Sequence record: PQ429079.1
Source of the DNA: Escherichia phage vB_VIPECOTPH05A
Reading direction: 5' to 3' (one strand)
Length of the DNA: 45,476 nucleotides
The notes beneath the pieces were generated by a model. It searched no databases. It had not been told where the DNA came from and saw nothing but the letters and a program-made list of their open reading frames with translations. The position numbers were made by a program, and so were the translations under genes. Shown here piece by piece: positions 2,336 through 40,585 of this stretch (position 1 is its first letter; each line of letters starts with the position of its first letter).

Positions 2336-2364
2336 AATATAATAGGTGTCAGAGTAATAGTCAA
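2336..2364 (-). promoter_or_regulatory. sigma70-like promoter (TTGACT-N17-TATATT)
   Basis: -35 at 2359-2364 and -10 at 2336-2341 on minus strand, upstream of ORF 2115..2303. Confidence 0.45.
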
Positions 2365-2382
2365 CTAGTCATTACAGAAAAT

Positions 2383-2418
2383 AGATAAAAAAAATCCCGG
2401 CTGGGTCAGGGCCGGGAG
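2383..2418 (-). terminator. rho-independent terminator
   Basis: GC stem TCCCGGC...GCCGGGA followed on minus strand by a U8 run (plus A8 at 2386-2393). Confidence 0.6.
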
Positions 2419-2488
2419 AAACAGAGAGCAGAGGGATGATACAGGAGGTTGGAGAAACCAGTATGCCTTTAGCGCCTGGTGCCGTCAA

Positions 2489-2526
2489 TGGGCAAAATAA
2501 AACCCGGATTCGCGGTCCGGGTTTCA
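2489..2526 (-). terminator. rho-independent terminator
   Basis: stem AAACCCGGA/TCCGGGTTT followed on minus strand by UUAUUUUG; lies downstream of the lysis cassette. Confidence 0.55.
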
Positions 2527-2562
2527 GGGTGGTGCAAGCACAAACAGCGTAGGGTAATTATA

Positions 2563-2655
2563 TCAACGGCCTTTCAACCCGTCAAAGCATCCCCAGAAGG
2601 CCCCAACCACCGCGCCAGCACCGATAGCCAATAAGATGAAATCAATCTCTGTCAT
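2563..2655 (-). CDS. 30-aa hydrophobic peptide (possible lysis accessory)
   Basis: MTEIDFILLAIGAGAVVGAFWGCFDGLKGR; start overlaps endolysin stop (ATGA); below ORF-track size cutoff. Confidence 0.3.
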   Translation of the reverse strand: MTEIDFILLAIGAGAVVGAFWGCFDGLKGR

Positions 2656-3137
2656 TTAACAGCCCTCCCGATAGCAACCGCCTCTTGCCACGGTTTACCG
2701 TCGAACAGTGCCAGACGCCCGGCGGTACGTCGGCGCAGTCCAAGTAACGGTTTACCATTCTGGTTGATGAACAGTGCCAGCTTAGCCCGTAGCGTCTGCG
2801 CATCACCAGCGCGCAGCGCCTTACCCGTTCCGGTAGTAGCTGCGATTACGCCAGCGCCCGCGTTAAACACCAGGTCGCACACCGCATCGAACTGACCCTG
2901 CGTCAGCGAGTGATGCGCTGCGGCGTCAACGGCAGATACGGCCTTAGCCATGTCACGATTGAGTAACAGGAGGCCCTGACCTGGCGTGATGGTCTGCCCT
3001 GGCTTAACATCAGCACCGTAATGCCCGTAGCCTATAGTCAGGTACTTCTCGTCCGGCGTAGCGCGATACGCAGTTCCGCGGAAGCCCTCGAACGCAGCGC
3101 AGAAATGCAGTCCATTATCTGAAATATTTCGAGACAC
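2652..3137 (-). CDS. endolysin, GH24 (T4/lambda-type) lysozyme
   Basis: catalytic pattern E..D..T in FEGFRGTAYRATPDEKYLTIGYGHY; likely GTG start at 3137 with GGAGG RBS 8 nt upstream; ORF track gives 2652..3188. Confidence 0.8.
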   Translation of the reverse strand: MSRNISDNGLHFCAAFEGFRGTAYRATPDEKYLTIGYGHYGADVKPGQTITPGQGLLLLNRDMAKAVSAVDAAAHHSLTQGQFDAVCDLVFNAGAGVIAATTGTGKALRAGDAQTLRAKLALFINQNGKPLLGLRRRTAGRLALFDGKPWQEAVAIGRAVK

Positions 3138-3387
3138 GCTTATGTCCTCCGTACGACAGCCACGCCTGACGAATCTGGCGCAGCGCAACTAATGTGATTA
3201 ATGTCTCAGGCAACGCAGGCGACATGCTGCCCTGTAACAGGTGGATACATCCGGCGGCGCAAACGATAGCTGTCAGGATATAGAGCACCCGACCAAATAG
3301 CCCGTCGTCCACACTGGGGTGGTATACGTTAAACAGCGATGCGCCCTCAATTGCGAGCATACCGCCAAACCAGAATAATTCATTCAT
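3115..3387 (-). CDS. holin/antiholin-like membrane protein
   Basis: ORF 3115..3480; start MNELFWFGGMLAIEG at 3387 with GGAGGTGG RBS; two hydrophobic segments; overlaps both neighbours. Confidence 0.5.
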   Translation of the reverse strand: MNELFWFGGMLAIEGASLFNVYHPSVDDGLFGRVLYILTAIVCAAGCIHLLQGSMSPALPETLITLVALRQIRQAWLSYGGHKRVSKYFR

Positions 3388-3688
3388 TACCACCTCCGCG
3401 ACGTGCGATGTATTCTCCGGCGACAATGCCAGAGAGACGGGAATAAATCGGCATCCAGAGAATAGCAATGATGAACCCAAGGCCTGCTATTTCGCGTTCA
3501 CCTGCGATACCGAACCATTGAGCGGCAAGAGGTGCACCGAATACGGCGCACGCAAATCCAGTGGCGAGAAAACAGAGAGCATCGACAGGACCAGTAATAG
3601 TGGCTTTGTGTTGTCGTAAGCCTATTACCCCGCCAGCTAGTGAGGCAGCCAGAAGCCAGCCCGTCACTGTTTCAGTAAATTTATCCAA
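3380..3688 (-). CDS. holin-like membrane protein
   Basis: 102 aa with three hydrophobic helices (WLLAASLAGGVIGL, FLATGFACAVFGAPLAA, GLGFIIAILWMPIY); immediately upstream of endolysin. Confidence 0.55.
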   Translation of the reverse strand: MDKFTETVTGWLLAASLAGGVIGLRQHKATITGPVDALCFLATGFACAVFGAPLAAQWFGIAGEREIAGLGFIIAILWMPIYSRLSGIVAGEYIARRGGGNE

Positions 3689-3747
3689 GATGAATCCTCC
3701 AGGTGCGTATTAAGTATGCAGTAACTGGAGGATACCACGGGTAGGAA

Positions 3748-4188
3748 TTATCCTAATAGTTGTTTGGTAATAATCTTGCCGCCGGTGTTAGTGTCGAACT
3801 TCGAGGCAACTGCTACCCCACCATGCGCCGAATACCCACATTCCATCGCCGCCAGTGCATAAGGAGAACCGGAACCTACGGCGGCAAAGCTATCAGCAAT
3901 CGGAATAACCGAACTTAGCGCACAATCCCATGATTTATAGAACGCGACTTTATACACCTGTTCGGTGTCTTTCACGAACACCAGGGCTTCGAAATTGAAG
4001 TCGTAAGGCTGTGGTCGAAGAATACCCGGGCAATCGATAAGCATAGTGCCTGCCCCCGCATCACCAGCCACCCCGATAACAGCAAAATCATTCTCGTATA
4101 TCTTTGTGTCTGTGTTGTAGCAGTTACTCCCGCACACAACACGGGTGTCACAGGCCATTGTCTTTCCGTCAAACGCGATAGTAGTCAT
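3748..4188 (-). CDS. Ntn-hydrolase, proteasome beta/HslV-like peptidase
   Basis: N-terminus MTTIAFDG (Thr directly after Met, as in HslV TTIV) and AVGSGSPYALAAMECG resembling HslV GSGGxYALAAA. Confidence 0.5.
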   Translation of the reverse strand: MTTIAFDGKTMACDTRVVCGSNCYNTDTKIYENDFAVIGVAGDAGAGTMLIDCPGILRPQPYDFNFEALVFVKDTEQVYKVAFYKSWDCALSSVIPIADSFAAVGSGSPYALAAMECGYSAHGGVAVASKFDTNTGGKIITKQLLG

Positions 4189-4478
4189 TTGTGTCTCCAG
4201 ATGTATTGTCGTCTCTGCGGTTTTGTCGGAATATCATCGTACCCCAGCGATTTCCAGTAATTAAATAACCGATTAGCGATTGCTGCGCGTTCCTTTGTTT
4301 TAAACTCACCGAGGTTCACGGCCTTCCCATTCTGGAATCCACAGGCGCGGACAGCTTTGCGTCTGGCCTGAATCTCAGGGAACAGCGCATTACGGCGGCG
4401 CTTGTATATCTGTGTTTTAGCTCTCGGCGACAGCGGCGCAAGGCCGCTTCGTTTCAGGATGTCAGTTGCAAGGCTCAT
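4185..4478 (-). CDS. AP2-domain DNA-binding protein
   Basis: ORF 4185..4523; likely start MSLATD at 4478; GFQNGKAVNLGEFKTKERAAIANRLF resembles the AP2 domain found in homing endonucleases; no HNH motif. Confidence 0.4.
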   Translation of the reverse strand: MSLATDILKRSGLAPLSPRAKTQIYKRRRNALFPEIQARRKAVRACGFQNGKAVNLGEFKTKERAAIANRLFNYWKSLGYDDIPTKPQRRQYIWRHK

Positions 4479-4669
4479 ATTCCGAGAATCTCGCGGGCCA
4501 TTTCTTCTGTAACTTTCGAACAAGGTTCGTATATTACCTGTTCAGCGAATTCACGTAACTTTGCTTCCAGTTTAAGATAAGCGTCGTATTCTACATAATC
4601 GCCGTATGCGTACTCAGCCATCTCAGGCTCTGGCAGGCCCCATTTTTCCACCTCATACCTCTGTACCAT
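4475..4669 (-). CDS. hypothetical protein (MVQRY paralog A)
   Basis: ORF 4475..4714; likely start MVQRYEVEKWG at 4669; tandem paralog of the adjacent gene. Confidence 0.45.
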   Translation of the reverse strand: MVQRYEVEKWGLPEPEMAEYAYGDYVEYDAYLKLEAKLREFAEQVIYEPCSKVTEEMAREILGI

Positions 4670-4872
4670 CACTCCACCCCTTCCAAATGTGTAACTGACC
4701 CACAGTTCGCGCACTCTACGTAATCAGGGAACTGGTCTTTGTATTTCTGTAACTCGGCTTCAACTTCCAACAGCTTGTGGTCAAGATTCTGGTAGTCCTC
4801 AAACTTAACCCACGCCCCGTGACGGTCCCCGAAATGGTTGTCAGACCCATACTTAGAGTATCTCTGTACCAT
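4669..4872 (-). CDS. hypothetical protein (MVQRY paralog B)
   Basis: ORF 4669..4878; ATG at 4872 with AGGAG RBS; starts MVQRYSKYG. Confidence 0.45.
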   Translation of the reverse strand: MVQRYSKYGSDNHFGDRHGAWVKFEDYQNLDHKLLEVEAELQKYKDQFPDYVECANCGSVTHLEGVE

Positions 4873-4874
4873 AA

Positions 4875-5078
4875 TCACTTCTCCTGTTTACCAAGTCGCT
4901 TAGGTGAGCAGATAGCGCGTACCTCTGAGTCGTTGGGCTTGTCACCCTGAAACAGAAAGTGCGCGTTCTCTGCGGCGCGTGCCGCTGACTGGCACGCCTC
5001 CATCGAATAAAACGTTTCTGATGCCGCTAGCTGCATCTGGCCTGCGGACAATACCCAGATAAATAATATGCTGGTCAT
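4875..5078 (-). CDS. small protein with N-terminal signal-peptide-like segment
   Basis: ORF 4875..5093; likely start MTSILFIWVLSAGQMQLAAS at 5078 (GGGGTGA RBS). Confidence 0.4.
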   Translation of the reverse strand: MTSILFIWVLSAGQMQLAASETFYSMEACQSAARAAENAHFLFQGDKPNDSEVRAICSPKRLGKQEK

Positions 5079-5149
5079 TTGATCACCCCGCATTTAGAGC
5101 ACTGCTGTAAGTCGCTACACCACAGAACCAAACGATAGTCATGTTCACA

Positions 5150-5599
5150 TTACTGTGTGTCAATCTTGTATTCCACTATGTCTGCGTATGTTCCATCCCA
5201 AATCCACGACCGCTTTTCTGCTGCTACACTGTGTTTCGGCTCCTCCCCGTTGCGATACCGGATAAATACCATAGTCCCATCCGGAACAGGTTGTCGTGCA
5301 CCATAATGCGGCCTCCAGGCGTTGTACTGAGTATCTTCCTTACGGCAACCAGATTGCTCCGTGGCATCGATGTATTCTCCAATGTCACCGGTAGACTTAG
5401 CTATCTCTTTACGCAAACGAACGACGGTGCTATTGGCGATATCAAGTTCTTTCTGTAACTCAGCCACCAGCGCCGACGCATCACGTAACTGATTCTTGAG
5501 TGACAACACCTCGTGCGCCAGGTCTTCGCACCGGTTGCTAGTTACCTGCTGCCGTAGCTGGTCAATCAGGTACTCGAATACTTCGTTTTTGTTACTCAT
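5150..5599 (-). CDS. hypothetical protein (coiled-coil N-terminus)
   Basis: ORF 5150..5689; likely start MSNKNEVFEYLIDQLRQQ at 5599. Confidence 0.45.
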   Translation of the reverse strand: MSNKNEVFEYLIDQLRQQVTSNRCEDLAHEVLSLKNQLRDASALVAELQKELDIANSTVVRLRKEIAKSTGDIGEYIDATEQSGCRKEDTQYNAWRPHYGARQPVPDGTMVFIRYRNGEEPKHSVAAEKRSWIWDGTYADIVEYKIDTQ

Positions 5600-5810
5600 C
5601 TTCTGGCTCCTCCCCGTTATATTCTTCAAACACAAAGTCATCGTCTGCGGATAGCGCCCATCGACCATACCCCATGTAGTAGACATCAAGTTCAGTGCCG
5701 TTGTCGTCTATTACGTAGCAGCGGCTCTCGTCGCCGTCTTCTTTGAGGTGGTATAAGTCGTTTTTGGTCAGTGCCCAATAGTCATCATAGGATTTGCATT
5801 CCAGGAACAT
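5592..5810 (-). CDS. hypothetical acidic protein
   Basis: ORF 5592..5837; likely start MFLECKSYDDYW at 5810 preceded by conserved leader AACGAGAGGAGAGACAGAAG. Confidence 0.45.
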   Translation of the reverse strand: MFLECKSYDDYWALTKNDLYHLKEDGDESRCYVIDDNGTELDVYYMGYGRWALSADDDFVFEEYNGEEPEDE

Positions 5811-5829
5811 CTTCTGTCTCTCCTCTCGT

Positions 5830-6102
5830 TTACTCAACAGCGCCGGTTATCGCTATAAGCCCGGTATTACCACGGCGGCGATACTTACGAATCACAGTTT
5901 TAAGTTCTTCATTACTACTCTGATGCCCAAAAGTGATCGGCAACTCTTCGCCGCCGGACATCCCGAACTCAGTGTCTGTCGGTTTGTTCCTCCATCCCTG
6001 GATAAAACCTAAACGGTCGCGAGTTATATACCGGTAGTTGTTGGGGAGGGGCAGCTCCAGCCCCTCAAAATCAACGGTAACGGTGTAACTGTTAAAATTC
6101 AT
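5830..6102 (-). CDS. hypothetical protein
   Basis: ORF 5830..6108; likely ATG start MNFNSYTVTVDFEG at 6102. Confidence 0.45.
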   Translation of the reverse strand: MNFNSYTVTVDFEGLELPLPNNYRYITRDRLGFIQGWRNKPTDTEFGMSGGEELPITFGHQSSNEELKTVIRKYRRRGNTGLIAITGAVE

Positions 6103-6271
6103 AGTCAATTACCCCGAACTCGTTGATGATTTGCGCCTTGTAGAAGTTGCCGTTTGATGCCAGGTGATACGCCTGCGCCATAGTCATCTCGCGATAAGTT
6201 GCTGCGCTGTTTTCGAATTCCATAACCATCAAAGTAACCATCTTCTGTCTCTCCTCTCGTTTGTGTAAATG

Positions 6272-6300
6272 AATAGTAGCCTATTCTATCTTAGTGTGCA
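6272..6300 (-). promoter_or_regulatory. sigma70-like promoter (TTGCAC-N17-TACTAT)
   Basis: -35 at 6295-6300 and -10 at 6272-6277 on minus strand, followed by conserved leader AACGAGAGGAGAGACAGAAG-ATG. Confidence 0.5.
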
Positions 6301-6530
6301 AGTAAATTTTATTGGTGTTTTAACGATAATTGTTCACCGCGAATACAGTAGTACCTCGGGCGTCTCGCCCACTGACGCCATCGCATAACACGGTACTTGT
6401 TGCCGTCTGACGCAACAATAAGCCTGAATCGCTTTTCTCCGTTTCTACCAGTCCAGGTTACGATGTCATTCAGTTTCATTGTTGCATCTCCTGCAATAGT
6501 CGCTTCGATTGTTGCGTTTGGTGAAATAGA

Positions 6531-6570
6531 ACAAAAATGAGAAAAATGATACGCTGCTGTGTAGCAGCGT
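6531..6570 (-). terminator. rho-independent terminator
   Basis: stem ACGCTGCT/AGCAGCGT followed on minus strand by AUCAUUUUUCUCAUUUUU. Confidence 0.5.
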
Positions 6571-6612
6571 AAGTCACTCAGTAAAATCCCAAACTATTGT
6601 TACAATATAACA

Positions 6613-6813
6613 TCACACTTCTGACGGCTCTGGTAACGGCATCCAGTGTGTCACGTACTTATCATAGTGATTCCAGAACGGCTTTCTCCCGTCATCAGGA
6701 ACGATGTAATAGTCGTGCTGAACTGCGTTATTCAACGTTTCATACACCAGAAACTCTTTATCAGTACTTCCGTTACCTGGTAGCATCTCACTACACTTAA
6801 TCCACTCGCTCAT
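6613..6813 (-). CDS. DUF551-like phage protein
   Basis: 66 aa; C-terminal THWMPLPEPSEV matches the characteristic DUF551 ending. Confidence 0.5.
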   Translation of the reverse strand: MSEWIKCSEMLPGNGSTDKEFLVYETLNNAVQHDYYIVPDDGRKPFWNHYDKYVTHWMPLPEPSEV

Positions 6814-6967
6814 AAATCACCTCTCTTTTCGAATGCACCAGCCATTACATTCGCACCAGCTTTCCACGCCCGCCACGCGAGACGCGTCTTAACGTTCAGG
6901 TACTCTTTCTTTGGCCCCTTGTTAACCGGCAGACCCTCGACGATGGCCCACCGTTCGAATGCTTCTC

Positions 6968-7123
6968 TCATACCAGAACCTCGCATTCATCCCGATACAC
7001 GAACAATAACGACCCTTTGTACTCAATCATAAAACCATAATGGTTGCTGCTGAACGCCATAAAAACATCACCTACCGAGATACCGAAATCTACAAGCCCG
7101 CGGTCAGTTATACGGATTCTCAT
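6968..7123 (-). CDS. hypothetical protein (MRIRI paralog, 51 aa)
   Basis: not in ORF track (below cutoff); MRIRITDRGLVDFGISVGDVF... parallels the adjacent 66-aa protein. Confidence 0.4.
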   Translation of the reverse strand: MRIRITDRGLVDFGISVGDVFMAFSSNHYGFMIEYKGSLLFVYRDECEVLV

Positions 7124-7183
7124 ACCAACCCCCGCAACGCGTGCGCCACATAAACGGCGCTGATGATTAAAATGAACGGGTAA

Positions 7184-7384
7184 TTATTCATAGATAATCT
7201 CCGCCTCTCTGTTACGAATAAACAGTTCTTCACCATCCTTTTCTACAAGATACCCGTAGTCGTTGCGGTAAGTAATATCAAACTCATCGCCTATCGAAAC
7301 ACCAAAGTGGCGCAAAGAATGGTCACCATACCTCGGCGGCAGCACATAATCGACATCAATTATTCGAATTCTCATTAACGGCAA
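7184..7384 (-). CDS. hypothetical protein (MRIRI paralog)
   Basis: 66 aa; MRIRIIDVDYVLPPRYGDHSLRHFGVSIGDEF. Confidence 0.45.
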   Translation of the reverse strand: MPLMRIRIIDVDYVLPPRYGDHSLRHFGVSIGDEFDITYRNDYGYLVEKDGEELFIRNREAEIIYE

Positions 7385-7629
7385 CCTCCCTCAGAGTCGT
7401 CGGCACGAGCATCATGATTCGATGCCGTTCTGAATGTTACCGCTGGTGTGCCCAGGACATTCACGGTAAAGGCTTCACCATGTGATTGCTCTAAATCCCA
7501 CTCATCACCTTCCTCGTCTAAAACGTAGAGACGACCGTCGTAGTGTACTTTCAACGAATACTCGTTGCCTTTTATAAACCAACCGCCCATTTCTGCTTTA
7601 GACTCAATACAAATTAATTCTTCCATCAC
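7375..7629 (-). CDS. hypothetical protein
   Basis: 84-aa ORF in the early leftward operon, overlapping neighbours by a few nt. Confidence 0.4.
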   Translation of the reverse strand: MMEELICIESKAEMGGWFIKGNEYSLKVHYDGRLYVLDEEGDEWDLEQSHGEAFTVNVLGTPAVTFRTASNHDARADDSEGGCR

Positions 7630-7826
7630 TTCGCCCCTTTGAATTTAAAATTGTTGCCGATGAGCTTCATTTCATACTCTCGGTAATACGCCGTGGAACT
7701 TAACCCGTGCTCCCTGAGTAAGCTAACGACATAAGAACTTCGGTACACTGTCGATTTCTTTTCAATAATACCTAAGCTACCGTACATCGTTTTCACCAAC
7801 TGACCCTTCCTAAACATAACCCTCAC
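7626..7826 (-). CDS. hypothetical protein
   Basis: first ORF of leftward operon; GTG at 7826 or ATG at 7817; downstream of promoter at 7852-7880. Confidence 0.4.
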   Translation of the reverse strand: MRVMFRKGQLVKTMYGSLGIIEKKSTVYRSSYVVSLLREHGLSSTAYYREYEMKLIGNNFKFKGAK

Positions 7827-7851
7827 TCATCTGTCTCGTTTCGATAAGTGA

Positions 7852-7880
7852 ATAGTATCCTATTATGTTGGGGCGTGCAA
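7852..7880 (-). promoter_or_regulatory. sigma70-like promoter (TTGCAC-N17-TACTAT), leftward
   Basis: -35 at 7875-7880 and -10 at 7852-7857 on minus strand. Confidence 0.5.
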
Positions 7881-8251
7881 GAGAATAGTTACGTTGCCGT
7901 TGTGATTCTTCAGGTAGGGTTGTGCCTTTATTCTTATTACTTGGTAACTAAAGGGCAGGCCCTAAGCCTGCCCAATAATCGTTACATTTTTACGGTTGCG
8001 AATCTACGGCACATTAAGAAAATCAGATACTTAAGAGATATGCCGCCGATGAGAATATAGCTTGCCCAGGGCAACCGGAGATACTTAGGAAGGAAAGTTA
8101 CAATAATTCTCGTGTTCAGTAAGCCTGCTGCTTAACCCTTTGCTTAACGCACGGGTTAAGCATTCTTACAAGGTGAACAGGAATCAAAGTAACTAAGATA
8201 TAGAAGCATCTTAAACGAAGATTTTCATAATGTCAATAGGTGCAATTATGT

Positions 8252-8280
8252 TTGATTTCCCATTATTCGCAATGTATACT
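8252..8280 (+). promoter_or_regulatory. sigma70-like promoter (TTGATT-N17-TATACT), rightward
   Basis: in AT-rich divergent intergenic region 8061-8311; drives the plus-strand replication operon. Confidence 0.45.
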
Positions 8281-8311
8281 TTGTTTCGTTAACTGATAAT
8301 GGGGTTTGAGA

Positions 8312-8482
8312 ATGACGCAGAATGAGGTAGCTGAGCGCATCGGGGTTACCCGTCGCACGCTGAATAACTGGTTAAAGAGTGGGAAGTTCCCGGATTGTTG
8401 TATTCGCATTATGGGCCGTCGTCAGCCAGGTACGTTTGACCCGGAGAAAGTGGAAGCGTGGATTAAGGAGAATGTAAAATGA
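8312..8482 (+). CDS. small HTH DNA-binding protein (56 aa)
   Basis: MTQNEVAERIGVTRRTLNNWLKSGKFP is a clear helix-turn-helix; below ORF-track cutoff; stop overlaps next start (ATGA). Confidence 0.55.
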   Translation: MTQNEVAERIGVTRRTLNNWLKSGKFPDCCIRIMGRRQPGTFDPEKVEAWIKENVK

Positions 8483-8712
8483 CCGAGTTTCAGTCCCGCG
8501 TATTTACGGCTGTAGTTTCGTTAACGCGTAAAAAAGGGTCGTGCAGCGTTATGGACTTGCGCCGTAGTTATTTTAAGTACTATAGTTCCGCCATTATTGA
8601 AGGGTCGTTGAAGGTACTGGTTAAATCGGGTGTCGTGAAAAACGTTGGTGGGAAATATAGTGCTGTTGCTGAAGTTCGCGGAATGGCTGCTACTTTAGAA
8701 GACCTGGAATAA
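8479..8712 (+). CDS. hypothetical protein with acidic C-terminal tail ...LEDLE
   Basis: 77-aa ORF; C-terminus ends LEDLE like the primase/helicase-like protein and the exonuclease. Confidence 0.5.
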   Translation: MTEFQSRVFTAVVSLTRKKGSCSVMDLRRSYFKYYSSAIIEGSLKVLVKSGVVKNVGGKYSAVAEVRGMAATLEDLE

Positions 8713-8770
8713 AAGAAAGCCCCGACGCGGTGAACGCCGAGGCCAAATTACTTGCTGAAGGAAATACAAC

Positions 8771-11038
8771 ATGTCCGATGTAATTTTATCCTACTCGTGG
8801 TCACGTCGCAACGCGCGGGCGGAGAAAAAGGATATAAACGTCAGAACCACACACACGGCAACACTGGACGACCTGAAAGAGCTAATCCAGCCGCTCTATG
8901 CCGTTCGTGACGGGATTAACCCTAAGACCGCACCGGGGTATATCACCGCCGCGTGCGATTTGACACACAGCACCGTAAAAGACCCGGAAACCGGCGACTT
9001 TAAGCAAGCGCGTAAAGGCTTTTTCTATCGCTGCGACGCGTCTGTAAGCAAATCGTCGCTGGCGTACCTGGACTTCGACAGCGCAACACCGGAAGAGTAT
9101 CAGGAAGCTGTGCGCCTGGTTAAGCGCAGCCGCCTGGCTATGTGCCTCTACACCACGGCATCCCATACCGATGAGTCACCACGCTTTCGCGTCGTCATGC
9201 CGCTGGGCCGCCCGGTTGAAGGCGGAGACATCATCCGTGTTCGCCATGGATTGCTGGAACACTTCTTCAAAGGCATGGGCGCGGACCGCAGCGGTTTCAC
9301 TCTGTCGCAGCCTATGTACCTGCCGCCGGTTGGCTCTACCGTTATCTGGTCGCGCCGAAACGACCTGATTGACCCGGAAGAGTTACTGGAAGGCATCCCG
9401 GATTACGAGGTGAGCAGCGCATCTGACTACCAGATACCAGAAGAACTGCGTACCGCGTTTACTGATGCGTTTGAGGCGCTGGCGTTTGAGTACGGCGGTG
9501 TTATGACGCCCCGCGGCCTTAAGATGCCAGCTACGCCGGAACATGCAGAAAATTACAGCGACCCTACGCCGCGCCCGGACGACTTCCTGCTGTGCTTCCC
9601 GCGCGAGGGCTACGAAGCGCCGAACGTAACCATGATCCACGACACTGACATTACGGCAACCGAAGGCATGTCGCCGAAAGAGGTGTGGAAATATGCGTGC
9701 GATGCGACCGGGCTTCCGTTCAGTGAAGTTGCAGAGGCAATCGGTTGGGGTACGCGTGGGTCAGTTTCATGCAGCCTGGACGACCTGGAAGACGATGAGG
9801 ACTCAGAGGAGGGCGAGCTACCGGAACCGGTAAAGGCTGATTTCGTCGTTGAAGGGTACATGCCGTCGGATTGTATCTGGGATATCGTCGGGGAATCTGG
9901 CACGTACAAATCGTTCTATACGCTGGGGATGATGTATCTCAGCGCCGCCGGATACCGGTTTGCGGGGGCGGATACCCAGCGTTGCCATCACTTCTATATT
10001 GATGGTGAGGGTGGCGCGGCCACACGTACGCGTATTGACGCGCTCGCGGCTAAATACGGTGCGGAAGGTAAAGATTACGTACACGTCATCGATATGGGTG
10101 AAGTCGGCAAACTGAAAAGCCTGATTAAGTTGATGCGTGAAACTGCGGGCGATGAACCTATCGGCATGGTCGCGTTCGACACCCTTAACCAGACCCTGGC
10201 CCTGACGATTGATAAGTTTGACGAGAACAGTTCATCAACGGCAATCGGTATGGGTAAAGTTATCGCCATCCTGAAAGAAGTGCGTGACGCAACTAAAGCC
10301 GCGGTGGGCGTCGTTCACCATACGCCGAAGGGGGGAAAGAAAGCCCGTGGTAGTGGCGCTCTGTATGCGGGGGTCGATGTGGAACTGACAATCGAACGCG
10401 CCACCGACCGACAGATAAACGTATATCACTCGAAATTCAAGCACGGGCCTCAGCAGAAGACGGTTGGCATGGTACTGGAGTCTGTACAGTTCCGCGAAGC
10501 ACCACCTCCGAAAGAGTACCGCGCGGTTGAGTTCGTCGGTAACACAGAGGAATACGGCGCAATCGTAAACCTGGACCTGCCTGAGCCGCACAAGGCGCTT
10601 GTGCTGATGCCGTGGGGCTTCGAGCCGTTCAAAACTGACGAGGAGAAAGAGCGGGAAGAAGGGCTGACAAAAGAAGGTAAAGAAAACGTACGTAAAACCG
10701 TAGAGAACGCAGTCAATAGTTCAGAAGCCACGATACTTGCCGCGTTTGAACTGGCGGAAGGAACCTACAACGGCAACGAAGGTATCACGGTAGCCGCAGC
10801 GAATAAGCTGGCACGGTCCGACCCTAACGCGAAGGCGTTTAACTCCAAAGAAGCCATAGAACGCGGGAAGATTAAGAAAATGGTTGAGGCGGGGTATCTT
10901 GTGCCAGGGACCGACGAAAACAATCAGATAATACCTGGCCGCTACAGGCTTAACACCAGGATAACGGATAACAAGATTCCGAAGACAATATACGAGCCGA
11001 ATGAGATGCTGGTGGTGACAGAGGAGGATTTGGAATAG
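8771..11038 (+). CDS. primase/helicase-like replication protein (RecA-like AAA ATPase domain)
   Basis: 755 aa; Walker A GESGTYKS, Walker B-like MVAFD, arginine-finger region; N-terminal primase-like region; ends EEDLE. Confidence 0.65.
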   Translation: MSDVILSYSWSRRNARAEKKDINVRTTHTATLDDLKELIQPLYAVRDGINPKTAPGYITAACDLTHSTVKDPETGDFKQARKGFFYRCDASVSKSSLAYLDFDSATPEEYQEAVRLVKRSRLAMCLYTTASHTDESPRFRVVMPLGRPVEGGDIIRVRHGLLEHFFKGMGADRSGFTLSQPMYLPPVGSTVIWSRRNDLIDPEELLEGIPDYEVSSASDYQIPEELRTAFTDAFEALAFEYGGVMTPRGLKMPATPEHAENYSDPTPRPDDFLLCFPREGYEAPNVTMIHDTDITATEGMSPKEVWKYACDATGLPFSEVAEAIGWGTRGSVSCSLDDLEDDEDSEEGELPEPVKADFVVEGYMPSDCIWDIVGESGTYKSFYTLGMMYLSAAGYRFAGADTQRCHHFYIDGEGGAATRTRIDALAAKYGAEGKDYVHVIDMGEVGKLKSLIKLMRETAGDEPIGMVAFDTLNQTLALTIDKFDENSSSTAIGMGKVIAILKEVRDATKAAVGVVHHTPKGGKKARGSGALYAGVDVELTIERATDRQINVYHSKFKHGPQQKTVGMVLESVQFREAPPPKEYRAVEFVGNTEEYGAIVNLDLPEPHKALVLMPWGFEPFKTDEEKEREEGLTKEGKENVRKTVENAVNSSEATILAAFELAEGTYNGNEGITVAAANKLARSDPNAKAFNSKEAIERGKIKKMVEAGYLVPGTDENNQIIPGRYRLNTRITDNKIPKTIYEPNEMLVVTEEDLE

Positions 11039-11041
11039 GTA

Positions 11042-11066
11042 AAAAGAAAGGGGCGTTAAGCCCCTT
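11042..11066 (-). terminator. hairpin terminator between convergent genes
   Basis: stem AAGGGGC/GCCCCTT; U-run on minus-strand side only. Confidence 0.4.
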
Positions 11067-11271
11067 CACCGAACGCCAGCCACTTGGCGTCTACTTCCAG
11101 CACTTCCGCCAGCTTGAACAGCGTCACCGGGCGGACGTCCTGAGTTACCCCGAGCGCAAGCTGGTTAATTGCGCCCTGGGAAACTCCAGTCAGGACAGCC
11201 AGACGGCGCTGGGAGATGCCAAGTTCTTTACGGCGTTGTTCTACGCGAATGCCTAGTTCAGATGGTTGCAT
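11056..11271 (-). CDS. XRE-family HTH transcriptional regulator (Cro/CI-like)
   Basis: 71 aa; RKELGISQRRLAVLTGVSQGAINQLALG is a typical XRE HTH; opposite strand inside the replication module. Confidence 0.7.
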   Translation of the reverse strand: MQPSELGIRVEQRRKELGISQRRLAVLTGVSQGAINQLALGVTQDVRPVTLFKLAEVLEVDAKWLAFGEGA

Positions 11272-11335
11272 GCCAGTTACTCCTTAGTTAGTTGATATGT
11301 GAATAGTACCATATTAATTATTTTAGAAAAGCCCA

Positions 11336-11364
11336 TTGACACATGAATAGTTCGCTATTATAGT
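11336..11364 (+). promoter_or_regulatory. sigma70 consensus-like promoter (TTGACA-N17-TATAGT)
   Basis: followed by conserved leader AACGAGAGGAGAGAAACGT-ATG at 11396. Confidence 0.6.
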
Positions 11365-11395
11365 TAGCCCATACCAAACGAGAGGAGAGAAACGT

Positions 11396-11653
11396 ATGCG
11401 GTTAATTGACTTGCTGCTTAAAGAACTACCTAAGTATGGTGGTTGGCCTGCAGGCGCTACGGAATGTATTCGGTTTGTAGATGAAGCGACGATTGACTTC
11501 TACGACTCTACCGGAAACTGGCCGTACGATTGTGCAGAGATATATGGCGAGATAGCATCCGGTCTGGTGTGCGAGCCGTCTAGACCGCTTGAAAGTGAAG
11601 TAGTTTACTACGAAGACTATAAAAATGTGCTAAATAAACAGGAGAACAAATAA
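11396..11653 (+). CDS. hypothetical protein
   Basis: 85-aa ORF with strong RBS. Confidence 0.5.
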   Translation: MRLIDLLLKELPKYGGWPAGATECIRFVDEATIDFYDSTGNWPYDCAEIYGEIASGLVCEPSRPLESEVVYYEDYKNVLNKQENK

Positions 11654-12123
11654 TGTTAGAACAATTCTTAAAATTACTGGAACGTTTCGTAGTCGCACAT
11701 GAACAGATTGCTGCGAACAGCGAGAAACAGGTTGTCGTTGCTGAAACTGCAACAATCGCGCCTACTGTTGCAAAAGAAGCAACAAAAGAAATCCCGGTCG
11801 AAGGTGAAGACATCGTTGACACTAAACCAGCAGAAGAAGAGAAGCCGAAACGCAAGCCGCGTAAAGCTAAAGTAGAGGAACCGACAACAGAGCTGGAAGA
11901 AGAGAAGGAAGAGGTAGACTACCAGTCTCTGCGTGACCAGATTCGGGCTATCGACGATGCGATTAACGAAGGCCCGAGCGATGCCGCGTGCGACGATTCT
12001 GATGAACTTCTGGAAGAGTTCACCGGTAAGAAGATGAAGATTGCCGCGATTAAAGACGAAGACCTGGCTGAATACCTGGAACGCCTGACAGCAATCAAGA
12101 ACAAGTATTTCGAAGAAGAATAA
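11653..12123 (+). CDS. hypothetical acidic protein
   Basis: 156 aa, Glu/Lys-rich (EEEKPKRKPRKAKVEE...). Confidence 0.5.
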   Translation: MLEQFLKLLERFVVAHEQIAANSEKQVVVAETATIAPTVAKEATKEIPVEGEDIVDTKPAEEEKPKRKPRKAKVEEPTTELEEEKEEVDYQSLRDQIRAIDDAINEGPSDAACDDSDELLEEFTGKKMKIAAIKDEDLAEYLERLTAIKNKYFEEE

Positions 12124-12166
12124 TTACCCAGCGGCCTTCGGGCCGCTTTAACTGAGGGTCGGAATT

Positions 12167-12502
12167 ATGAACTACGAGAATTTAACAGACATAGAAATTA
12201 ATGCACGTGTCAGCCGCGCGCTATACGGTGATGTTTCGCGAGGGCATCAGATGGAATTGGCTTCTGGAATAGTAGACTATTGTAACCGTATAGATGACGC
12301 ATGGCCTATCATCACCGGTAACAACATCTCGATTGTAGCTACAGATTTAGAATGGATTGCTTTACCGGATAATGCGGTTATCGACGGTATTACCGGAGAC
12401 GCAACCAGTATGATTTACGTAGATGACTCATGTGTTATTGGTAAAAACCCTCTACGCGCCGCTATGATTGTCTTCTTGAGAACGCATGAGGTGGATAAAT
12501 GA
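12167..12502 (+). CDS. hypothetical protein
   Basis: 111-aa ORF. Confidence 0.45.
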   Translation: MNYENLTDIEINARVSRALYGDVSRGHQMELASGIVDYCNRIDDAWPIITGNNISIVATDLEWIALPDNAVIDGITGDATSMIYVDDSCVIGKNPLRAAMIVFLRTHEVDK

Positions 12503-12771
12503 TTTACCAACTCTACCGCGCCGTCGACAGGCGGGACAACACAGATGCACTATGGCTGTTGCGTGCGCCGTCAGGAGCGCACCAGATGGAAGAGATGGCG
12601 TACTTAGGCAAAGTACCGCGGCCTAAAGATATAGGCCGTCACGTGTCGCAGATTAAGCGCACGACTTTCGCCAAACCTGACTTTTATGTCTTCGAGTCGA
12701 TGTACGGGTGGGCCATGCATTGCCATCACCAGACACGACATTTAATTGACCAGTGGGGGAGCAGGGTATGA
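12499..12771 (+). CDS. hypothetical protein
   Basis: 90-aa ORF, ATGA-coupled to neighbours. Confidence 0.45.
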   Translation: MIYQLYRAVDRRDNTDALWLLRAPSGAHQMEEMAYLGKVPRPKDIGRHVSQIKRTTFAKPDFYVFESMYGWAMHCHHQTRHLIDQWGSRV

Positions 12772-14353: not shown

Positions 14354-14357
14354 AGTG

Positions 14358-14386
14358 TTGACACCTGAATAGTTAGCTATTATAGT
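14358..14386 (+). promoter_or_regulatory. sigma70 consensus-like promoter (TTGACA-N17-TATAGT)
   Basis: near-identical to the promoter at 11336. Confidence 0.6.
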
Positions 14387-15068: not shown

Positions 15069-15087
15069 TATCTGAATGAATTTAACT

Positions 15088-31258: not shown

Positions 31259-31287
31259 TTGCACACCCCAATATAATAGGGTACTAT
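31259..31287 (+). promoter_or_regulatory. sigma70-like promoter (TTGCAC-N17-TACTAT) for opposite-strand island
   Basis: drives plus-strand genes from 31316 inside the minus-strand tail operon. Confidence 0.5.
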
Positions 31288-31315
31288 TCACCCGTAACTT
31301 ACTGAGGAAACAATT

Positions 31316-31642
31316 ATGCGTAAATTAGTATTAGCTCTGGGGTTTATGTCTTTTGCTACTTTTGGGACTCCGTGTGAACAGGTATTTAGCGAATCTGTTC
31401 TTATGACTTCTGGTGTGCTTGAGAAAGCCGACCCTACTATTGTAAAGGCATTTAAGGACTCTACCGTTCGCGAGTGTGAAGCCGCCGTAGAGGTTGGTAA
31501 ATCTGGTCTACCTCCGCAAGCAGTAACATACACGGTGATACGTTCGGTAGAGAAAAACGGAGACGCGTTTTACAGCCTGCTGACAGCCACCCGCCTGCAA
31601 ATGGTAATGGCTGGATGGGCGATAGGCGCGGAAAGTAAATAG
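31316..31642 (+). CDS. secreted/periplasmic small protein (signal peptide)
   Basis: N-terminus MRKLVLALGFMSFATFG is signal-peptide-like; RBS GAGGAAA. Confidence 0.55.
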   Translation: MRKLVLALGFMSFATFGTPCEQVFSESVLMTSGVLEKADPTIVKAFKDSTVRECEAAVEVGKSGLPPQAVTYTVIRSVEKNGDAFYSLLTATRLQMVMAGWAIGAESK

Positions 31643-31708
31643 TCGCCTTTATTTAAAGGAACGCACTGTGGTTAAATAGGACAAATCCTAAACGCGAGGA
31701 AGTAAAGC

Positions 31709-32839
31709 ATGGCCCAGATTAAAATAACCGACGAACAGTTACAGGAAGAATTGAACGCCGGAACAAAGATTATCGACATATCCCGTAAATACGGCATCTC
31801 AGACCGAGTTATTCGTATCCGTAAAGCGAAGCTGGCGAAGAAAGGCGTAGGTCACGGTCGTGACGTTAGCCATCTTGTCCCGGACGGCTACAAGATTAAA
31901 GGCACGTCGTCACTTGTTGACGAGTTCGGCAACACTAAACTGCAATGGGTTAAGACTGATACCGACGCCGAACGTCAGGTTGAATTGATGAAAGCCGTAA
32001 TTGAAGGCATGAAGTCAGAGATTACGCCCGTTGCGCCTGTTAAAGCTGTTCGCGCCAAACGCGACGACAAGCTACTCAATCTTTACACGGTATCTGATTT
32101 CCATCTCGGTATGCTGGCATGGGCTGATGAGAGCGGAGACGACTGGGACATGAAGATTGCAGAAGACCTGTTCTCCCGATGGTTCGACGCGGCGTTCCAG
32201 AAAGCACCGGATGCAGGAACAGGAGTTATTAACCTTCTGGGCGACCTCGCTCACTTCGATAGTCTGGATGCGGTTACACCTGCAAGTGGTCATGTTCTTG
32301 ACGCGGACACGCGCTATCAGAAACTTGTACGCTACATGATTCGTATGGTCCGCCGTGTCGTTGATATGGCTCTGGTTAAACATAAAAATGTTCGCTTGCT
32401 TATCGTGCAAGGGAATCACGACGAAAGTGGCATGATTTGGTTGGCTGAGATGTTCAGCACGCTGTACGACAATGAGCCGCGTGTGTTCGTCGATACGTCG
32501 CCGGATGTTTACAAGATGGTGCAACACGGCAAAACGACGCTGTTCTTCCATCACGGACATAAAGCACGCTTCGACGCTATCGAACCGGTTATGATTGCCA
32601 AGTTCCGCAAAGCGTTCGGCGAGAGCGTTTATAGCTACGCCCACGTAGGCCACCTGCACCACCAGAAAATTGTAGAAAGCCGTAACATGATTGTTGAGCA
32701 ACACCGCACCCTGGCGGCTAAAGACGCCTACGCCTCTCGCGGCGGATGGATGTCAGGTCGTAGTGCAAATGTAATTACTTATAGCGCCGAATATGGTGAG
32801 GTCGCACGTTTAACTATTTCACCGGAGATGCTGGGATGA
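31709..32839 (+). CDS. HTH-fused calcineurin-like metallophosphoesterase
   Basis: N-terminal HTH (IIDISRKYGISDRVIRIRKAK); phosphoesterase motifs SDFHLG, GDLAHFD, QGNHDE, HHGH, GHLHH. Confidence 0.6.
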   Translation: MAQIKITDEQLQEELNAGTKIIDISRKYGISDRVIRIRKAKLAKKGVGHGRDVSHLVPDGYKIKGTSSLVDEFGNTKLQWVKTDTDAERQVELMKAVIEGMKSEITPVAPVKAVRAKRDDKLLNLYTVSDFHLGMLAWADESGDDWDMKIAEDLFSRWFDAAFQKAPDAGTGVINLLGDLAHFDSLDAVTPASGHVLDADTRYQKLVRYMIRMVRRVVDMALVKHKNVRLLIVQGNHDESGMIWLAEMFSTLYDNEPRVFVDTSPDVYKMVQHGKTTLFFHHGHKARFDAIEPVMIAKFRKAFGESVYSYAHVGHLHHQKIVESRNMIVEQHRTLAAKDAYASRGGWMSGRSANVITYSAEYGEVARLTISPEMLG

Positions 32840-33036
32840 AAGACATGTATGAATGCACCGAGGTAAGTCCGTATGCAGAGAAAAATGGGTTCGAAGTAGG
32901 TGCGGTGTACGAAGGAGTCACCCTAGAGAATGGCGATGTAAGAATGTATTCGCCTAAATATCGCAGCTTCTTTGAAATAGGCAACATTAACGAGTCAGGC
33001 ATAGCCAGATTTAAGAGAGTTAACAGTGACAAATAA
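32836..33036 (+). CDS. hypothetical protein
   Basis: 66-aa ORF, ATGA-coupled to the phosphoesterase gene. Confidence 0.4.
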   Translation: MKDMYECTEVSPYAEKNGFEVGAVYEGVTLENGDVRMYSPKYRSFFEIGNINESGIARFKRVNSDK

Positions 33037-33256
33037 ATACAACCGCACAATGACAAACACCTACGGCAGCACTATGACTGTAGACGTTTACGATGTACTA
33101 CGCGCATTCGATATACGCGACCCGGCGTTACAGCACGCATTGAAGAAGTTATTGTGCATGGGTCTTCGCGGCCACAAAGATACCGGGACAGACTTAGCGG
33201 AAGCAATTGAAAGTCTGGAGAAGTTACGGGAGTACAGGAGTAATATTGATGAGTAA
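33026..33256 (+). CDS. hypothetical protein
   Basis: 76-aa ORF. Confidence 0.4.
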   Translation: MTNKYNRTMTNTYGSTMTVDVYDVLRAFDIRDPALQHALKKLLCMGLRGHKDTGTDLAEAIESLEKLREYRSNIDE

Positions 33257-33422: not shown

Positions 33423-33452
33423 GAAAAAGGCCCCGTTAGGGGCCTTAGTTTT
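33422..33452. terminator. bidirectional rho-independent terminator
   Basis: stem AGGCCCC/GGGGCCT flanked by A5 and T-rich runs, between island and major tail gene. Confidence 0.7.
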
Positions 33453-38955: not shown

Positions 38956-38957
38956 TA

Positions 38958-39659
38958 TTATTTCCTCAGGGCTTTAAGTTGCCGTTCAAATTCGGCAGGG
39001 TTCGATTTATACAGAGCTAAACGCTCCGCTTCACTCATGTCTTTAAACGCTGGTGCGGCCCCGCCGCCTTTGCCACCGGAAGCCCCGCCGCCGGAAGCTG
39101 CATTTGCTTTAATCAAATGCGAAAACGCTTTGTGTTCGCGCAGGTATTTGCGGAACTGTTCAGGGTCAGTCGTGATTACACCGCCGTCTGGCCCAACAAA
39201 CTTAGTAACCACATCATCACCTTCGAACTCAGTCTTAACGAACGGAGCAAGAATGTCTACTGCTTCCGGGGTAATAAAGTCACCTGCGAAAGAGCCTAAC
39301 ACCGCTTTACGTTCGCTGCCGAGGATGCGCTCAGCCATTTTGGTTATGCGACCATCTTTCTCGGCTAACACCGGGTCATACTGGCTACGAATCGTCTTTT
39401 CGAACTCGTCCATCTTGCCGGCGGCTTTTAGCGCCTCCTGGTGCGCACGCTGACGTTCCTCTTCGGCCTCTTTTGCTTTACGGGCGGCTTCTTTCTTCTC
39501 CGCCAGCAATGCTTCCTGATTGGCCTTAAGTCCGGCAACTTCTTTCTCAATCATCGCCTGAACTTCTTCAGCGGTGAACATTTTTGGAGCGTCGCCACCG
39601 CTAGATTTATCTTCTGCCCCAGCTTCTTCCTGGAACGGATAGTGTAAAAAACGATTCAT
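38958..39659 (-). CDS. scaffolding protein
   Basis: ORF 38958..39713; likely start MNRFLHY at 39659; long Ala/Glu/Lys coiled-coil and Gly-rich C-terminus. Confidence 0.6.
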   Translation of the reverse strand: MNRFLHYPFQEEAGAEDKSSGGDAPKMFTAEEVQAMIEKEVAGLKANQEALLAEKKEAARKAKEAEEERQRAHQEALKAAGKMDEFEKTIRSQYDPVLAEKDGRITKMAERILGSERKAVLGSFAGDFITPEAVDILAPFVKTEFEGDDVVTKFVGPDGGVITTDPEQFRKYLREHKAFSHLIKANAASGGGASGGKGGGAAPAFKDMSEAERLALYKSNPAEFERQLKALRK

Positions 39660-39741
39660 AGTCAGTATGTCCCCTGGACGTTGGAATCCGGGCCTCCCGG
39701 ATTTACATGTCAAGAATAAATTATTCCAACATGCAAGGCAA

Positions 39742-40005
39742 CTATTCCAGAATATTCCTCACGTAATCCTGCAACATGAACACTTTCAGTCTCAGTTGCC
39801 GTACACATTCGGCGTTCTGAACGTCGATAGCTAAATCCTCGTCTGCGTCGCTACTTGGCAGTGCCAGTTTGCACGGCGGCTGCATCATCGGCATACCCGG
39901 GGATGGAATTGGCGTTTGCGACGGCGCGGGACTTGAGCTGCACCCGCTCAGGGTCAAAAGTGCACACGCTGCGGCCAGGCGTTTTAATGTACTTAACGAC
40001 TTCAC
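39742..40005 (-). CDS. outer-membrane spanin lipoprotein (Rz1-like)
   Basis: lipobox LTLSGC, Pro-rich mature region; overlaps Rz-like gene in another frame. Confidence 0.6.
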   Translation of the reverse strand: MKSLSTLKRLAAACALLTLSGCSSSPAPSQTPIPSPGMPMMQPPCKLALPSSDADEDLAIDVQNAECVRQLRLKVFMLQDYVRNILE

Positions 40006-40237
40006 GGGTTATCACCTCTGATTTCGTTTTGCCTTCGTTGTCAGCGGCGGCGGCCTTTGATTCATCCTGCTGCTGCCGTTGTGTTTTCTTCGCGAACTCA
40101 GCCTGTGCTTTCTGCTGTTGCTGCGAAACGAGATTAGCACGGCCTTCACCCCAGCCGCTGCGGTATTGATAGATGCCGTGTGCGTAGGCCAGGACGACGA
40201 AACATGCTCCGGCTACGACAGTTGCTTTAAGATTCAT
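39851..40237 (-). CDS. inner-membrane spanin (Rz-like)
   Basis: N-terminal TMD ATVVAGACFVVLAYA followed by Gln/Ala/Lys-rich predicted helix. Confidence 0.6.
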   Translation of the reverse strand: MNLKATVVAGACFVVLAYAHGIYQYRSGWGEGRANLVSQQQQKAQAEFAKKTQRQQQDESKAAAADNEGKTKSEVITREVVKYIKTPGRSVCTFDPERVQLKSRAVANANSIPGYADDAAAVQTGTAK

Positions 40238-40488
40238 GTTTCCCCTTTCTCGATAAGTAAAGCCCCGCCTTAAAGCGGGGCGCTAGTCCTTATCATTTAA
40301 ACATAGAAACGGCGTAATCTCAGTAAACCAGTTACTTTTTACACAAGCAATAGAGTATGGCCCTTCCGAACGCGTCAGCGTAACTACACTCAGGACTTAC
40401 GTCCCGCTCCGTTACCTGCCCGCGCCGCGGTCGCTTGTTCATACTTCACAAGCTCAGGTGGAGCTTATCATATTTTCAGTGAAAAGTC

Positions 40489-40504
40489 AACTATTCGAAT
40501 AGTT
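40489..40504. promoter_or_regulatory. perfect 16-bp palindrome AACTATTCGAATAGTT (operator-like)
   Basis: exact inverted repeat about 55 bp upstream of promoter at 40557; half-site ACTATTC recurs in -10/start regions of other promoters. Confidence 0.45.
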
Positions 40505-40556
40505 TATTCCAACGTTTACAATTGAGTGGAATAACTGGAATACGTAAATAAATAGT

Positions 40557-40585
40557 TTGCGCGCACCAACATAATAGGGTACTAT
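40557..40585 (+). promoter_or_regulatory. sigma70-like promoter (TTGCGC-N17-TACTAT)
   Basis: same -10/start context (GGGTACTATTCA) as promoter at 31259. Confidence 0.5.

Follow-up and report, generated by a model that had tools for sequence, protein, structure and literature searches.

Repeated regulatory sequences of several kinds are known from phages. The Cro protein of phage 434 binds 14-bp dyads of the form ACAA-N6-TTGT, and repressor regulons with dispersed operators are represented by the P1 C1 operators, the stoperators of mycobacteriophage L5 gp71 and the conserved inverted repeats of phiC31. The P1, L5 and phiC31 systems maintain lysogeny in temperate phages, and the P1 and L5 sites are asymmetric. 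The PeSL cassettes of T4-type phages are repeated sigma70-like early promoters with stem-loops, and recombination between copies leads to insertions, deletions and replacements (PMC2839356, PMC4122927). In Cluster K mycobacteriophages, the SAS element, which includes the Shine-Dalgarno region, occurs in 11 to 19 copies per genome (PMC3203893, where stoperators are also mentioned). For phage fBC-Eco01, seven motifs found with PHIRE (consensus tgAATAGTa-ccTATTat-T) were assigned to a phage-encoded RNA polymerase (PMC9825357). In the present study, we analyzed a stretch of 45,476 nt from Escherichia phage vB_VIPECOTPH05A (PQ429079.1; hereafter the window), which is a near-complete genome of a Kagunavirus (Guernseyvirinae) and in which an earlier note had described sigma70-like promoter and leader cassettes on both strands. 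We found that the promoter-like sites, in all three of their layouts, have in common a quasi-palindrome of 14 to 18 bp, tGAATAGT-N3-CTATTAT, which had escaped that note. Our reading is that the sites are host-sigma70 promoters of the non-structural units and that most of them probably carry an operator of the phage's own 71-aa Cro-like helix-turn-helix (HTH) protein.

The degenerate pattern TTGM-N19-TAYWRT, which combines the hexamers and the 17-nt spacer of the earlier note, matched the window eight times against 1.4 matches expected, and none of 100 shuffled sequences reached eight. The matches include 11336, 14358, 18919, 31259 and 40557 on the plus strand and 7852 and 6273 on the minus strand, the last of which had been given as 6272, one position off. 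Together with TTGACT-N17-TATATT at 2364-2336 (minus strand), recovered by a consensus scan, all eight sites that had been listed are present, although "at least nine" had been announced. The sigma70-like architecture with 17-nt spacers was borne out as well, and the sites are upstream of genes in the right orientation; each is 28 to 55 nt ahead of an ATG on the same strand. Sigma70-like matches in general are not enriched in the window (23 vs 21.2 expected in the consensus scan), and the listed set supplies three of the four matches that agree with the consensus at 11 of 12 positions. The listed elements are best regarded as predicted promoters for the host sigma70 RNA polymerase. The description "near-identical" holds within sub-families and fails across them, where there are three layouts rather than one family: A is TTGACA-N17-TATAGT (internal identity 93% and 70% over 30 nt; consensus score 10 to 11 of 12), B is TTGCAC-N17-TACTAT (83 to 91% over 32 to 36 nt; 7 of 12, with the exact 17-bp spacer at all four sites), and in C the -35 TTGACT is enclosed by a dyad repeat (10 of 12 at 2336). 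Over 39 relatives, the promoter elements are kept as blocks and the neighbouring genes are variable. The predicted promoters, each named below by P and its lower coordinate, are listed with their putative operators (ORF, open reading frame).

11336 to 11364, plus strand: predicted family A promoter TTGACA-N17-TATAGT, 11/12 consensus; putative operator 11346-11359 in the spacer, centre about -18.5.
14358 to 14386, plus strand: predicted family A promoter TTGACA-N17-TATAGT; putative operator 14368-14381; ahead of the single-stranded DNA (ssDNA)-binding protein gene 14442-15068.
18919 to 18947, plus strand: predicted family A promoter TTGACG-N17-TATAGT; putative operator 18929-18942, its core inverted relative to that at 11346; overlaps the 3' end of ORF 18666-18950.
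7852 to 7880, minus strand: predicted family B promoter TTGCAC-N17-TACTAT; putative operator 7851-7864, centred at about -12.5, over the -10; the first of the promoters in the leftward small-gene region.
6273 to 6301, minus strand: predicted family B promoter TTGCAC-N17-TACTAT; putative operator 6272-6285.
31259 to 31287, plus strand: predicted family B promoter TTGCAC-N17-TACTAT; putative operator 31275-31288; opens a plus-strand island in the late region.
40557 to 40585, plus strand: predicted family B promoter TTGCGC-N17-TACTAT; putative operator 40573-40586; ahead of the RusA-like gene 40613-41134.
2336 to 2364, minus strand: predicted family C promoter TTGACT-N17-TATATT; degenerate putative operator ACTAGTTGACTATT (2356-2369) around the -35.
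40482 to 40495, minus strand: one-mismatch dyad AATAGTTGACTTTT around TTGACT, facing the late genes and tentatively assigned to a candidate family C promoter.

The core dyad AATAG-N4-CTATT is found 8 times exactly and 4 times with one mismatch in the window, where 1.3 copies would be expected. When all dyads made of a 5-mer, a gap and its reverse complement were counted without bias, it came out highest both in the window and in two sister genomes. The consensus from 94 unique instances in 40 Kagunavirus sequences is tG-AATAG-T-nnn-CTATT-AT, in which the half-sites and the flanks up to two positions on either side are informative and the central 3 nt are not. The dyad is present at homologous places in 37 of 37 IMG/VR Kagunavirus loci. 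Its orientation relative to transcription is opposite in families A and B, and it begins 4 nt after the -35 in family A, 10 nt after it in family B and 7 nt after it in one promoter of Jerseyvirus Ent1. Calculated from the sequences, the centres are at about -18.5 in family A, -12.5 in family B and -33.5 in family C, so that core promoter elements are overlapped; in family B, the right half-site supplies the -10 TACTAT. In family C (P2336 and the candidate at 40482-40495), the dyad is around the -35 TTGACT, and the layout of P2336 recurs in Ent1 and in phage TS6. A symmetric site that lies on the core promoter while its orientation and register drift fits the operator of a dimeric repressor, and not a recognition sequence of a polymerase. 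In the closest relative (L001, 6355-6400, minus strand), an extra operator-like AATAGGTTACTATT without the TTGCAC -35 follows a tandem direct repeat, GGTGTAACAGGT twice, at a gene end.

A candidate for such a repressor is encoded in the window, and three further copies of the dyad were found at places other than the promoters listed above.

11056 to 11271, minus strand: gene for a 71-aa Cro/C1-type HTH protein (Pfam HTH_3, E=1.1e-11), the proposed repressor.
11302 to 11315: putative operator copy AATAGTACCATATT with 1 mismatch, over the putative -10 TGgTACTAT (minus strand) of the regulator gene's own promoter.
12268 to 12281: exact copy within ORF 12167-12502, with no recognisable promoter on either strand.
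42692 to 42705: one-mismatch dyad right behind a terminator, in the interval between the portal gene and the late gene that follows it.

The best match of the 71-aa protein among solved structures is phage 434 Cro (E=4e-6, residues 6-68). The lambdoid Klebsiella phage GZ7 has a homolog with 44% identity, located between cI and cII, that is, in the cro position, and the intergenic region upstream of it contains 14-bp ACAA-N6-TTGT dyads which overlap TTGACA hexamers in the same geometry. In the window, the regulator gene is divergent from P11336, with putative operators at 11302-11315 and 11346-11359, 44 bp apart, and the whole of this block is almost invariant in 38 unique relatives. Features of a 434-Cro-type system were found: a small, single-domain, homologous HTH protein, 14-bp symmetric sites with a weak centre, and overlap with the core promoter. 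A cI/cro immunity switch with OR/OL triplets was not found in the window, where two sites lie in the divergent region and the others are dispersed; the phage is virulent, with no cI, integrase or triplet operators.

The dyad was compared among three lineages only, as the homologs of the helicase-primase came mostly from Kagunavirus, Jerseyvirus and the unrelated Dhillonvirus. Jerseyvirus Ent1 and ten more Jerseyvirus contigs, whose regulator is about 50% identical, have the same dyad in an extended form, TAATAG-N4-CTATTA. In TS6 and four TS6-like contigs (regulator 41% identical), no AATAG-type site was found, even with one mismatch allowed; at equivalent positions, these phages have TATTAS-N4-STAATA inside TTGACA/TTGCAA-N17-TAATAT promoters. 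The TS6 pattern has a single, chance-level match in the window. Since TS6-like phages and Jerseyviruses both infect Salmonella and their dyads differ, the determinant of specificity is more likely encoded by the phage than by the host. In TS6 (L004), GAATAACTATTCAC also occurs twice in direct orientation, at a distance of 21 nt, in C-rich non-coding DNA ahead of the helicase gene (1138-1175); this may be an origin or an iteron-like element.

We infer promoter activity, the identity of the protein that binds the dyad and repression by this binding from the sequences described above. The units driven would be the leftward small early genes, the rightward replication genes, the two plus-strand islands among the late genes and the unit that lies ahead of the terminase genes. 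The promoters would be fired early by the host sigma70 polymerase, and the gene of the Cro-like protein would have a weak extended -10 promoter of its own. Once the protein has built up, its dimer may compete with RNA polymerase and lower the early, replication and island promoters, and it may repress its own gene via the copy at 11302. Silencing of P31259 and P40557 would also end head-on transcription against the late operons. A circuit of this kind is conceptually familiar and fairly ordinary for a phage. We also suggest, more tentatively, that the strictly virulent siphoviruses of the Guernseyvirinae might have a Cro-only circuit, without a CI partner and with operators in essentially every host-type promoter, including the one ahead of the terminase genes, and that the conserved promoter-operator-leader units might be fixed docking points for unrelated small early genes that are continually exchanged. 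If the latter is true, the exchanged early genes are candidates for host-takeover or anti-defence genes.

The leader is a separate repeat, with four copies in the window.

11377 to 11398, plus strand: leader AACGAGAGGAGAGA and the ATG of gene 11396-11653.
6239 to 6261, minus strand: leader AACGAGAGGAGAGACAGAAG and ATG, downstream of P6273.
5808 to 5830, minus strand: 23-nt leader identical to 6239-6261 with ATG, promoter-less, directly after the stop codon of the upstream ORF.
2301 to 2323, minus strand: leader AACGAGAGGAGAGACAGAGA and ATG, downstream of P2336.

The sequence AACGAGAGGAGAGA has 4 exact copies against 0.27 expected (2310-2323, 5817-5830 and 6248-6261 on the minus strand; 11377-11390 on the plus strand), and all four are 5 to 6 nt before an ATG, as the claim of a leader directly ahead of the start codon would have it. 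It holds an AGGAG Shine-Dalgarno sequence 9 nt before the ATG, with conserved purine-rich flanks. The order of promoter and then leader, which had been claimed for several sites, applies to P2336, P6273 and P11336; the 5817-5830 copy has no promoter, and P14358, P18919, P31259 and P40557 have other leaders. Because the leader is also found alone at 5817, promoter and leader are separable modules. The leader AACGAGAGGAGAGA(C)AGAAG is a shared Shine-Dalgarno and translation-initiation region, a module apart from the promoter; as in SAS-like translation leaders, a conserved sequence containing the Shine-Dalgarno stands directly upstream of the starts of unrelated genes. Matches to the exact 23-mer were limited to 10 contigs, of which nine have the size of a Kagunavirus genome and the tenth is a short fragment. 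With the exact leader limited to Kagunavirus-size contigs, there is no sign of its mobility between phage groups, and mobility beyond the lineage was rejected on this ground.

The cassettes had further been called modular and prone to recombination, which is partly supported. In agreement with this, unrelated families of first genes stand in the relatives behind conserved promoter and leader units, the number of such families being 12 at P6273 (where the conserved block is about 84 bp), 6 or more at P11336 and about 3 at P7852. The stable sites P14358 and P18919 are ahead of conserved genes. Homology with relatives stops at the ATG; for P11336, all 39 relatives lose it at 11350-11399. In one relative (L025), the promoter and leader of P6273 are joined straight to the homolog of window gene 5592-5810, and the two alignments with L025 share the 22-nt leader. 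The window genes 6092-6241 and 5830-6108 are thus an indel flanked by leader repeats: relative to L025, the two-gene insertion spans 6238-5830 with 22-nt direct leader repeats at both sides. The internal leader copy (5817) precedes different genes in relatives. Because it is repeated as an exact 22-23-nt sequence, the leader may act as a junction of gene gain and loss in the hypervariable early region. Breakpoints, however, are not significantly enriched at the cassettes: a homology break within 35 nt of the start codon was counted in 66% of relatives for 7 cassette-associated starts and in 60% for 37 other starts (Mann-Whitney p = 0.17). Furthermore, the PeSL unit of a promoter with an adjacent stem-loop terminator was not found in the window, as P6273, P11336, P14358 and P18919 have no upstream hairpin and a terminator-like hairpin is within about 100 nt upstream only at P2336 and P7852.

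These results bear on the possibility that the repeats are chiefly recombination modules, comparable to mobile PeSL cassettes, and that the palindrome is incidental. The hypervariable first genes behind conserved units, the indel with leader repeats at its flanks, the different genes after the internal leader copy and the precedent of the T4-type PeSLs (PMC2839356) agree with it. We consider it quite unlikely, since breakpoints are as common at ordinary starts (0.60 vs 0.66), the dyad-bearing P14358 and P18919 are stable, the junctions are at the leader and ATG rather than at the dyad, there is no consistent stem-loop partner, and the exact leader is limited to one lineage. The attribution of AATAGT...CTATTAT to a phage-encoded RNA polymerase, stated in the fBC-Eco01 paper (PMC9825357) and followed in OM272052.1, where the motifs are labelled "predicted phage promoter" at positions homologous to those in the window, is hardly credible. 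Pfam scans of three of the six ORFs longer than 700 aa (helicase-primase, family A DNA polymerase and the intein-bearing SNF2 helicase) gave no RNA polymerase domain, and the gene tables of four annotated Guernseyvirinae genomes contain no RNA polymerase, the other three large ORFs being tail genes there. A polymerase promoter is expected to be asymmetric and fixed, whereas the motif is a dyad in both orientations and several registers relative to TTGACA/TTGCAC hexamers with 17-nt spacing; this explanation was rejected for the lack of a polymerase gene and the symmetry of the motif. The spot homologous to 42692-42705 is annotated "phage promoter1" in fBC-Eco01.

The reading of the dyad as an operator of the Cro-like protein also has points against it. 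The right half-sites resemble -10 hexamers, so that promoter constraint could explain part of the conservation. The exact copy at 12268 is intragenic and promoter-less in an ORF that is rarely conserved, and about 0.05 exact copies are expected (window length / 4^10). The recognition helices do not track the operator type, being SQSLITH in Jerseyvirus, TQSAISH in TS6 and SQGAINQ in Kagunavirus; the Jerseyvirus helix is nearer to that of TS6 than to that of Kagunavirus, yet its operator is shared with Kagunavirus. A second small HTH protein (HTH_17, 8306-8482) is an alternative candidate binder, and the temporal RNA-seq of the relative K1B4 (PMC12645636), which was unsynchronised, is too coarse to assign the promoters to expression classes and was set aside for this purpose. 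Reading the specificity from the recognition helix was likewise rejected as not interpretable. The first of these points, taken further, would make the palindrome a by-product of overlapping -10-like hexamers (TACTAT, TATAAT or TATAGT on either strand) in promoters that are strong or bidirectional, with no dedicated binder: the right half-sites do coincide with the -10 (TACTAT, TATTAT; TAATAT in TS6), and the left half-site, read as its reverse complement, is also similar to a -10. This is very improbable, since the dyad is mostly in the spacer in family A and around the -35 in family C, where a resemblance to the -10 would be without function, the -10 consensus does not account for the G of AATAG or the C of CTATT, the copy at 12268 is exact without any promoter, and a whole lineage changed both half-sites together. 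It is also unlikely, if less so, that the dyad is an operator of a binder other than the Cro-like protein, either a host factor or the HTH_17 protein. The link from the dyad to the Cro-like protein is inferential, the helices show no clean covariation with the operator, the HTH_17 gene heads the rightward operon, and a "helix-turn-helix domain" gene is among the earliest transcripts in a relative (PMC12645636). The use of another dyad by TS6-like phages, which share the Salmonella host with Jerseyviruses, disfavours a shared host factor. The usual targets of HTH_17 or excisionase-type proteins are direct or irregular repeats rather than 14-bp dyads, which counts against the HTH_17 protein, and proteins of the 434 Cro family bind exactly the geometry of the dyad. 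The Cro-like gene, moreover, has a copy over its own putative promoter.

An inverted repeat, CATAAT-N12-ATTATG, at 8240-8275 may serve the HTH_17 protein, whose gene is immediately downstream, as an operator of its own; it lies between two divergent promoters that have no operator, at 8236-8208 on the minus strand and at 8252-8280 on the plus strand. The former, TTGACA-N17-TAAGAT, scores 10/12 and is followed by about 250 nt free of ORFs and a strong terminator at 7973-7953. This stretch (7953-8236, minus strand) has no Rfam match; it might encode a small RNA or serve as an origin region or as an immediate-early leader. In the whole window, including the leaders and the non-coding stretches, no known structured RNA was matched in Rfam at the gathering threshold. 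The wider genome has the following layout.

1 to 7826, minus strand: leftward small genes, lysis genes and the small terminase gene.
8306 to 21643, plus strand: rightward replication genes.
Late structural genes, minus strand: broken by plus-strand islands at 31316-33256 and 40613-41134.
33427 to 33446: bidirectional terminator at the end of the plus-strand island begun by P31259.
41139 to 41158: bidirectional terminator at the end of the plus-strand island begun by P40557.

Megablast of the first 20 kb matched 474 phage records, the best being the Kagunavirus Escherichia phage vB_VIPECOMC04 (82% coverage, 92.7% identity), in which the gene order is the same throughout. The two islands have a moron-like layout, from P31259 to the terminator at 33427-33446 and from P40557 to that at 41139-41158, both opposite to the late operon. 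Near-identical bidirectional terminator hairpins, AAGGCCCC-N4-GGGGCCTT, are at 15088-15107, 21782-21801, 33427-33446 and 41139-41158; this hairpin family occupies the convergent junctions of plus and minus units and, together with family B promoters, bounds the plus-strand islands. Downstream of the candidate promoter at 40482-40495 (minus strand), a non-coding stretch of about 200 nt and then a strong terminator (40281-40262) precede the late genes, which start from 40237. The layout of 40255-40495 (minus strand) resembles the lambda PR'-tR' late antitermination region; no Q-like gene was identified. A near-consensus promoter without the dyad, TTGACG-N17-TATAAT with a preceding TG, at 2557-2585 (minus strand), overlaps the end of a hydrophobic ORF of 30 aa that follows the endolysin gene, and a hairpin and T-run lie within about 60 nt downstream of the promoter. 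The 5' untranslated region of the ssDNA-binding protein gene contains a hairpin, CCGGG-CAGCT-CCCGG (14399-14413), whose sequence is kept in Ent1 and TS6 and which might serve translational autoregulation; the hairpin after P14358 is no more stable than shuffled sequence (z = 0.48). The ORF of the SNF2-type helicase (19172-21643) bears an intein with Hint and LAGLIDADG domains. The intein segment of about 1 kb (19250-20250) is missing from all 39 Kagunavirus relatives compared, and the Jerseyvirus Ent1 helicase also has an intein.

In the literature on promoters and transcription of Guernseyvirinae, we found only PHIRE-based annotations, no 5'-end data and a single RNA-seq paper, without start-site mapping (PMC12645636). 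The motif itself has already been published for the sister phage fBC-Eco01, and the operator interpretation appears to be new. It would correct the published annotation, in that the motifs would be host-polymerase promoters with an operator and not promoters of a phage RNA polymerase, and it gives a testable regulatory model for a group of phages of E. coli and Salmonella that is widely used in therapy. The slots behind P6273 and P11336, which gather diverse early accessory genes, may be useful for gene discovery and as natural insertion sites in engineering.

Among the known systems, the motif of fBC-Eco01 is the same motif at homologous positions in seven copies, although its description does not note the dyad symmetry, the sigma70 hexamers, a Cro-like protein or the variable cargo (PMC9825357). 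The window shares with the PeSLs repeated strong sigma70-like promoters among small non-conserved genes. However, it has no obligatory stem-loop terminator, the junction is the ribosome-binding leader and not the promoter, breakpoints are not enriched, and PeSLs are without an embedded palindromic operator. As in the Cluster K SAS, a conserved asymmetric sequence is directly upstream of starts and common to unrelated gene families, whereas the window has 4 leader copies only, of another sequence and in another host, most of them directly behind a promoter. The proposal of one small repressor with many near-identical scattered sites, mostly at early promoters, recalls P1 C1, L5 gp71 and phiC31, although neither homology to them nor lysogeny functions are evident in the window phage. 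In comparison with 434, the window phage is virulent and without a cI partner or integrase, its putative operators are spread over about 10 promoters with no OR/OL triplets, the half-site is AATAG and not ACAA, and the regulator gene is downstream of and opposite to the helicase-primase gene. On the other hand, as for 434 Cro, the regulator has a single domain and a length of about 70 aa, the similarity to 434 Cro is significant over the full length, and a divergent promoter pair is beside its gene, with the lambdoid homolog of GZ7 in the classical arrangement. As in the OR/OL sites of the 434 and P22 type, the 14-bp dyad has conserved outer bases and a variable centre and lies over a sigma70 -35 or -10.

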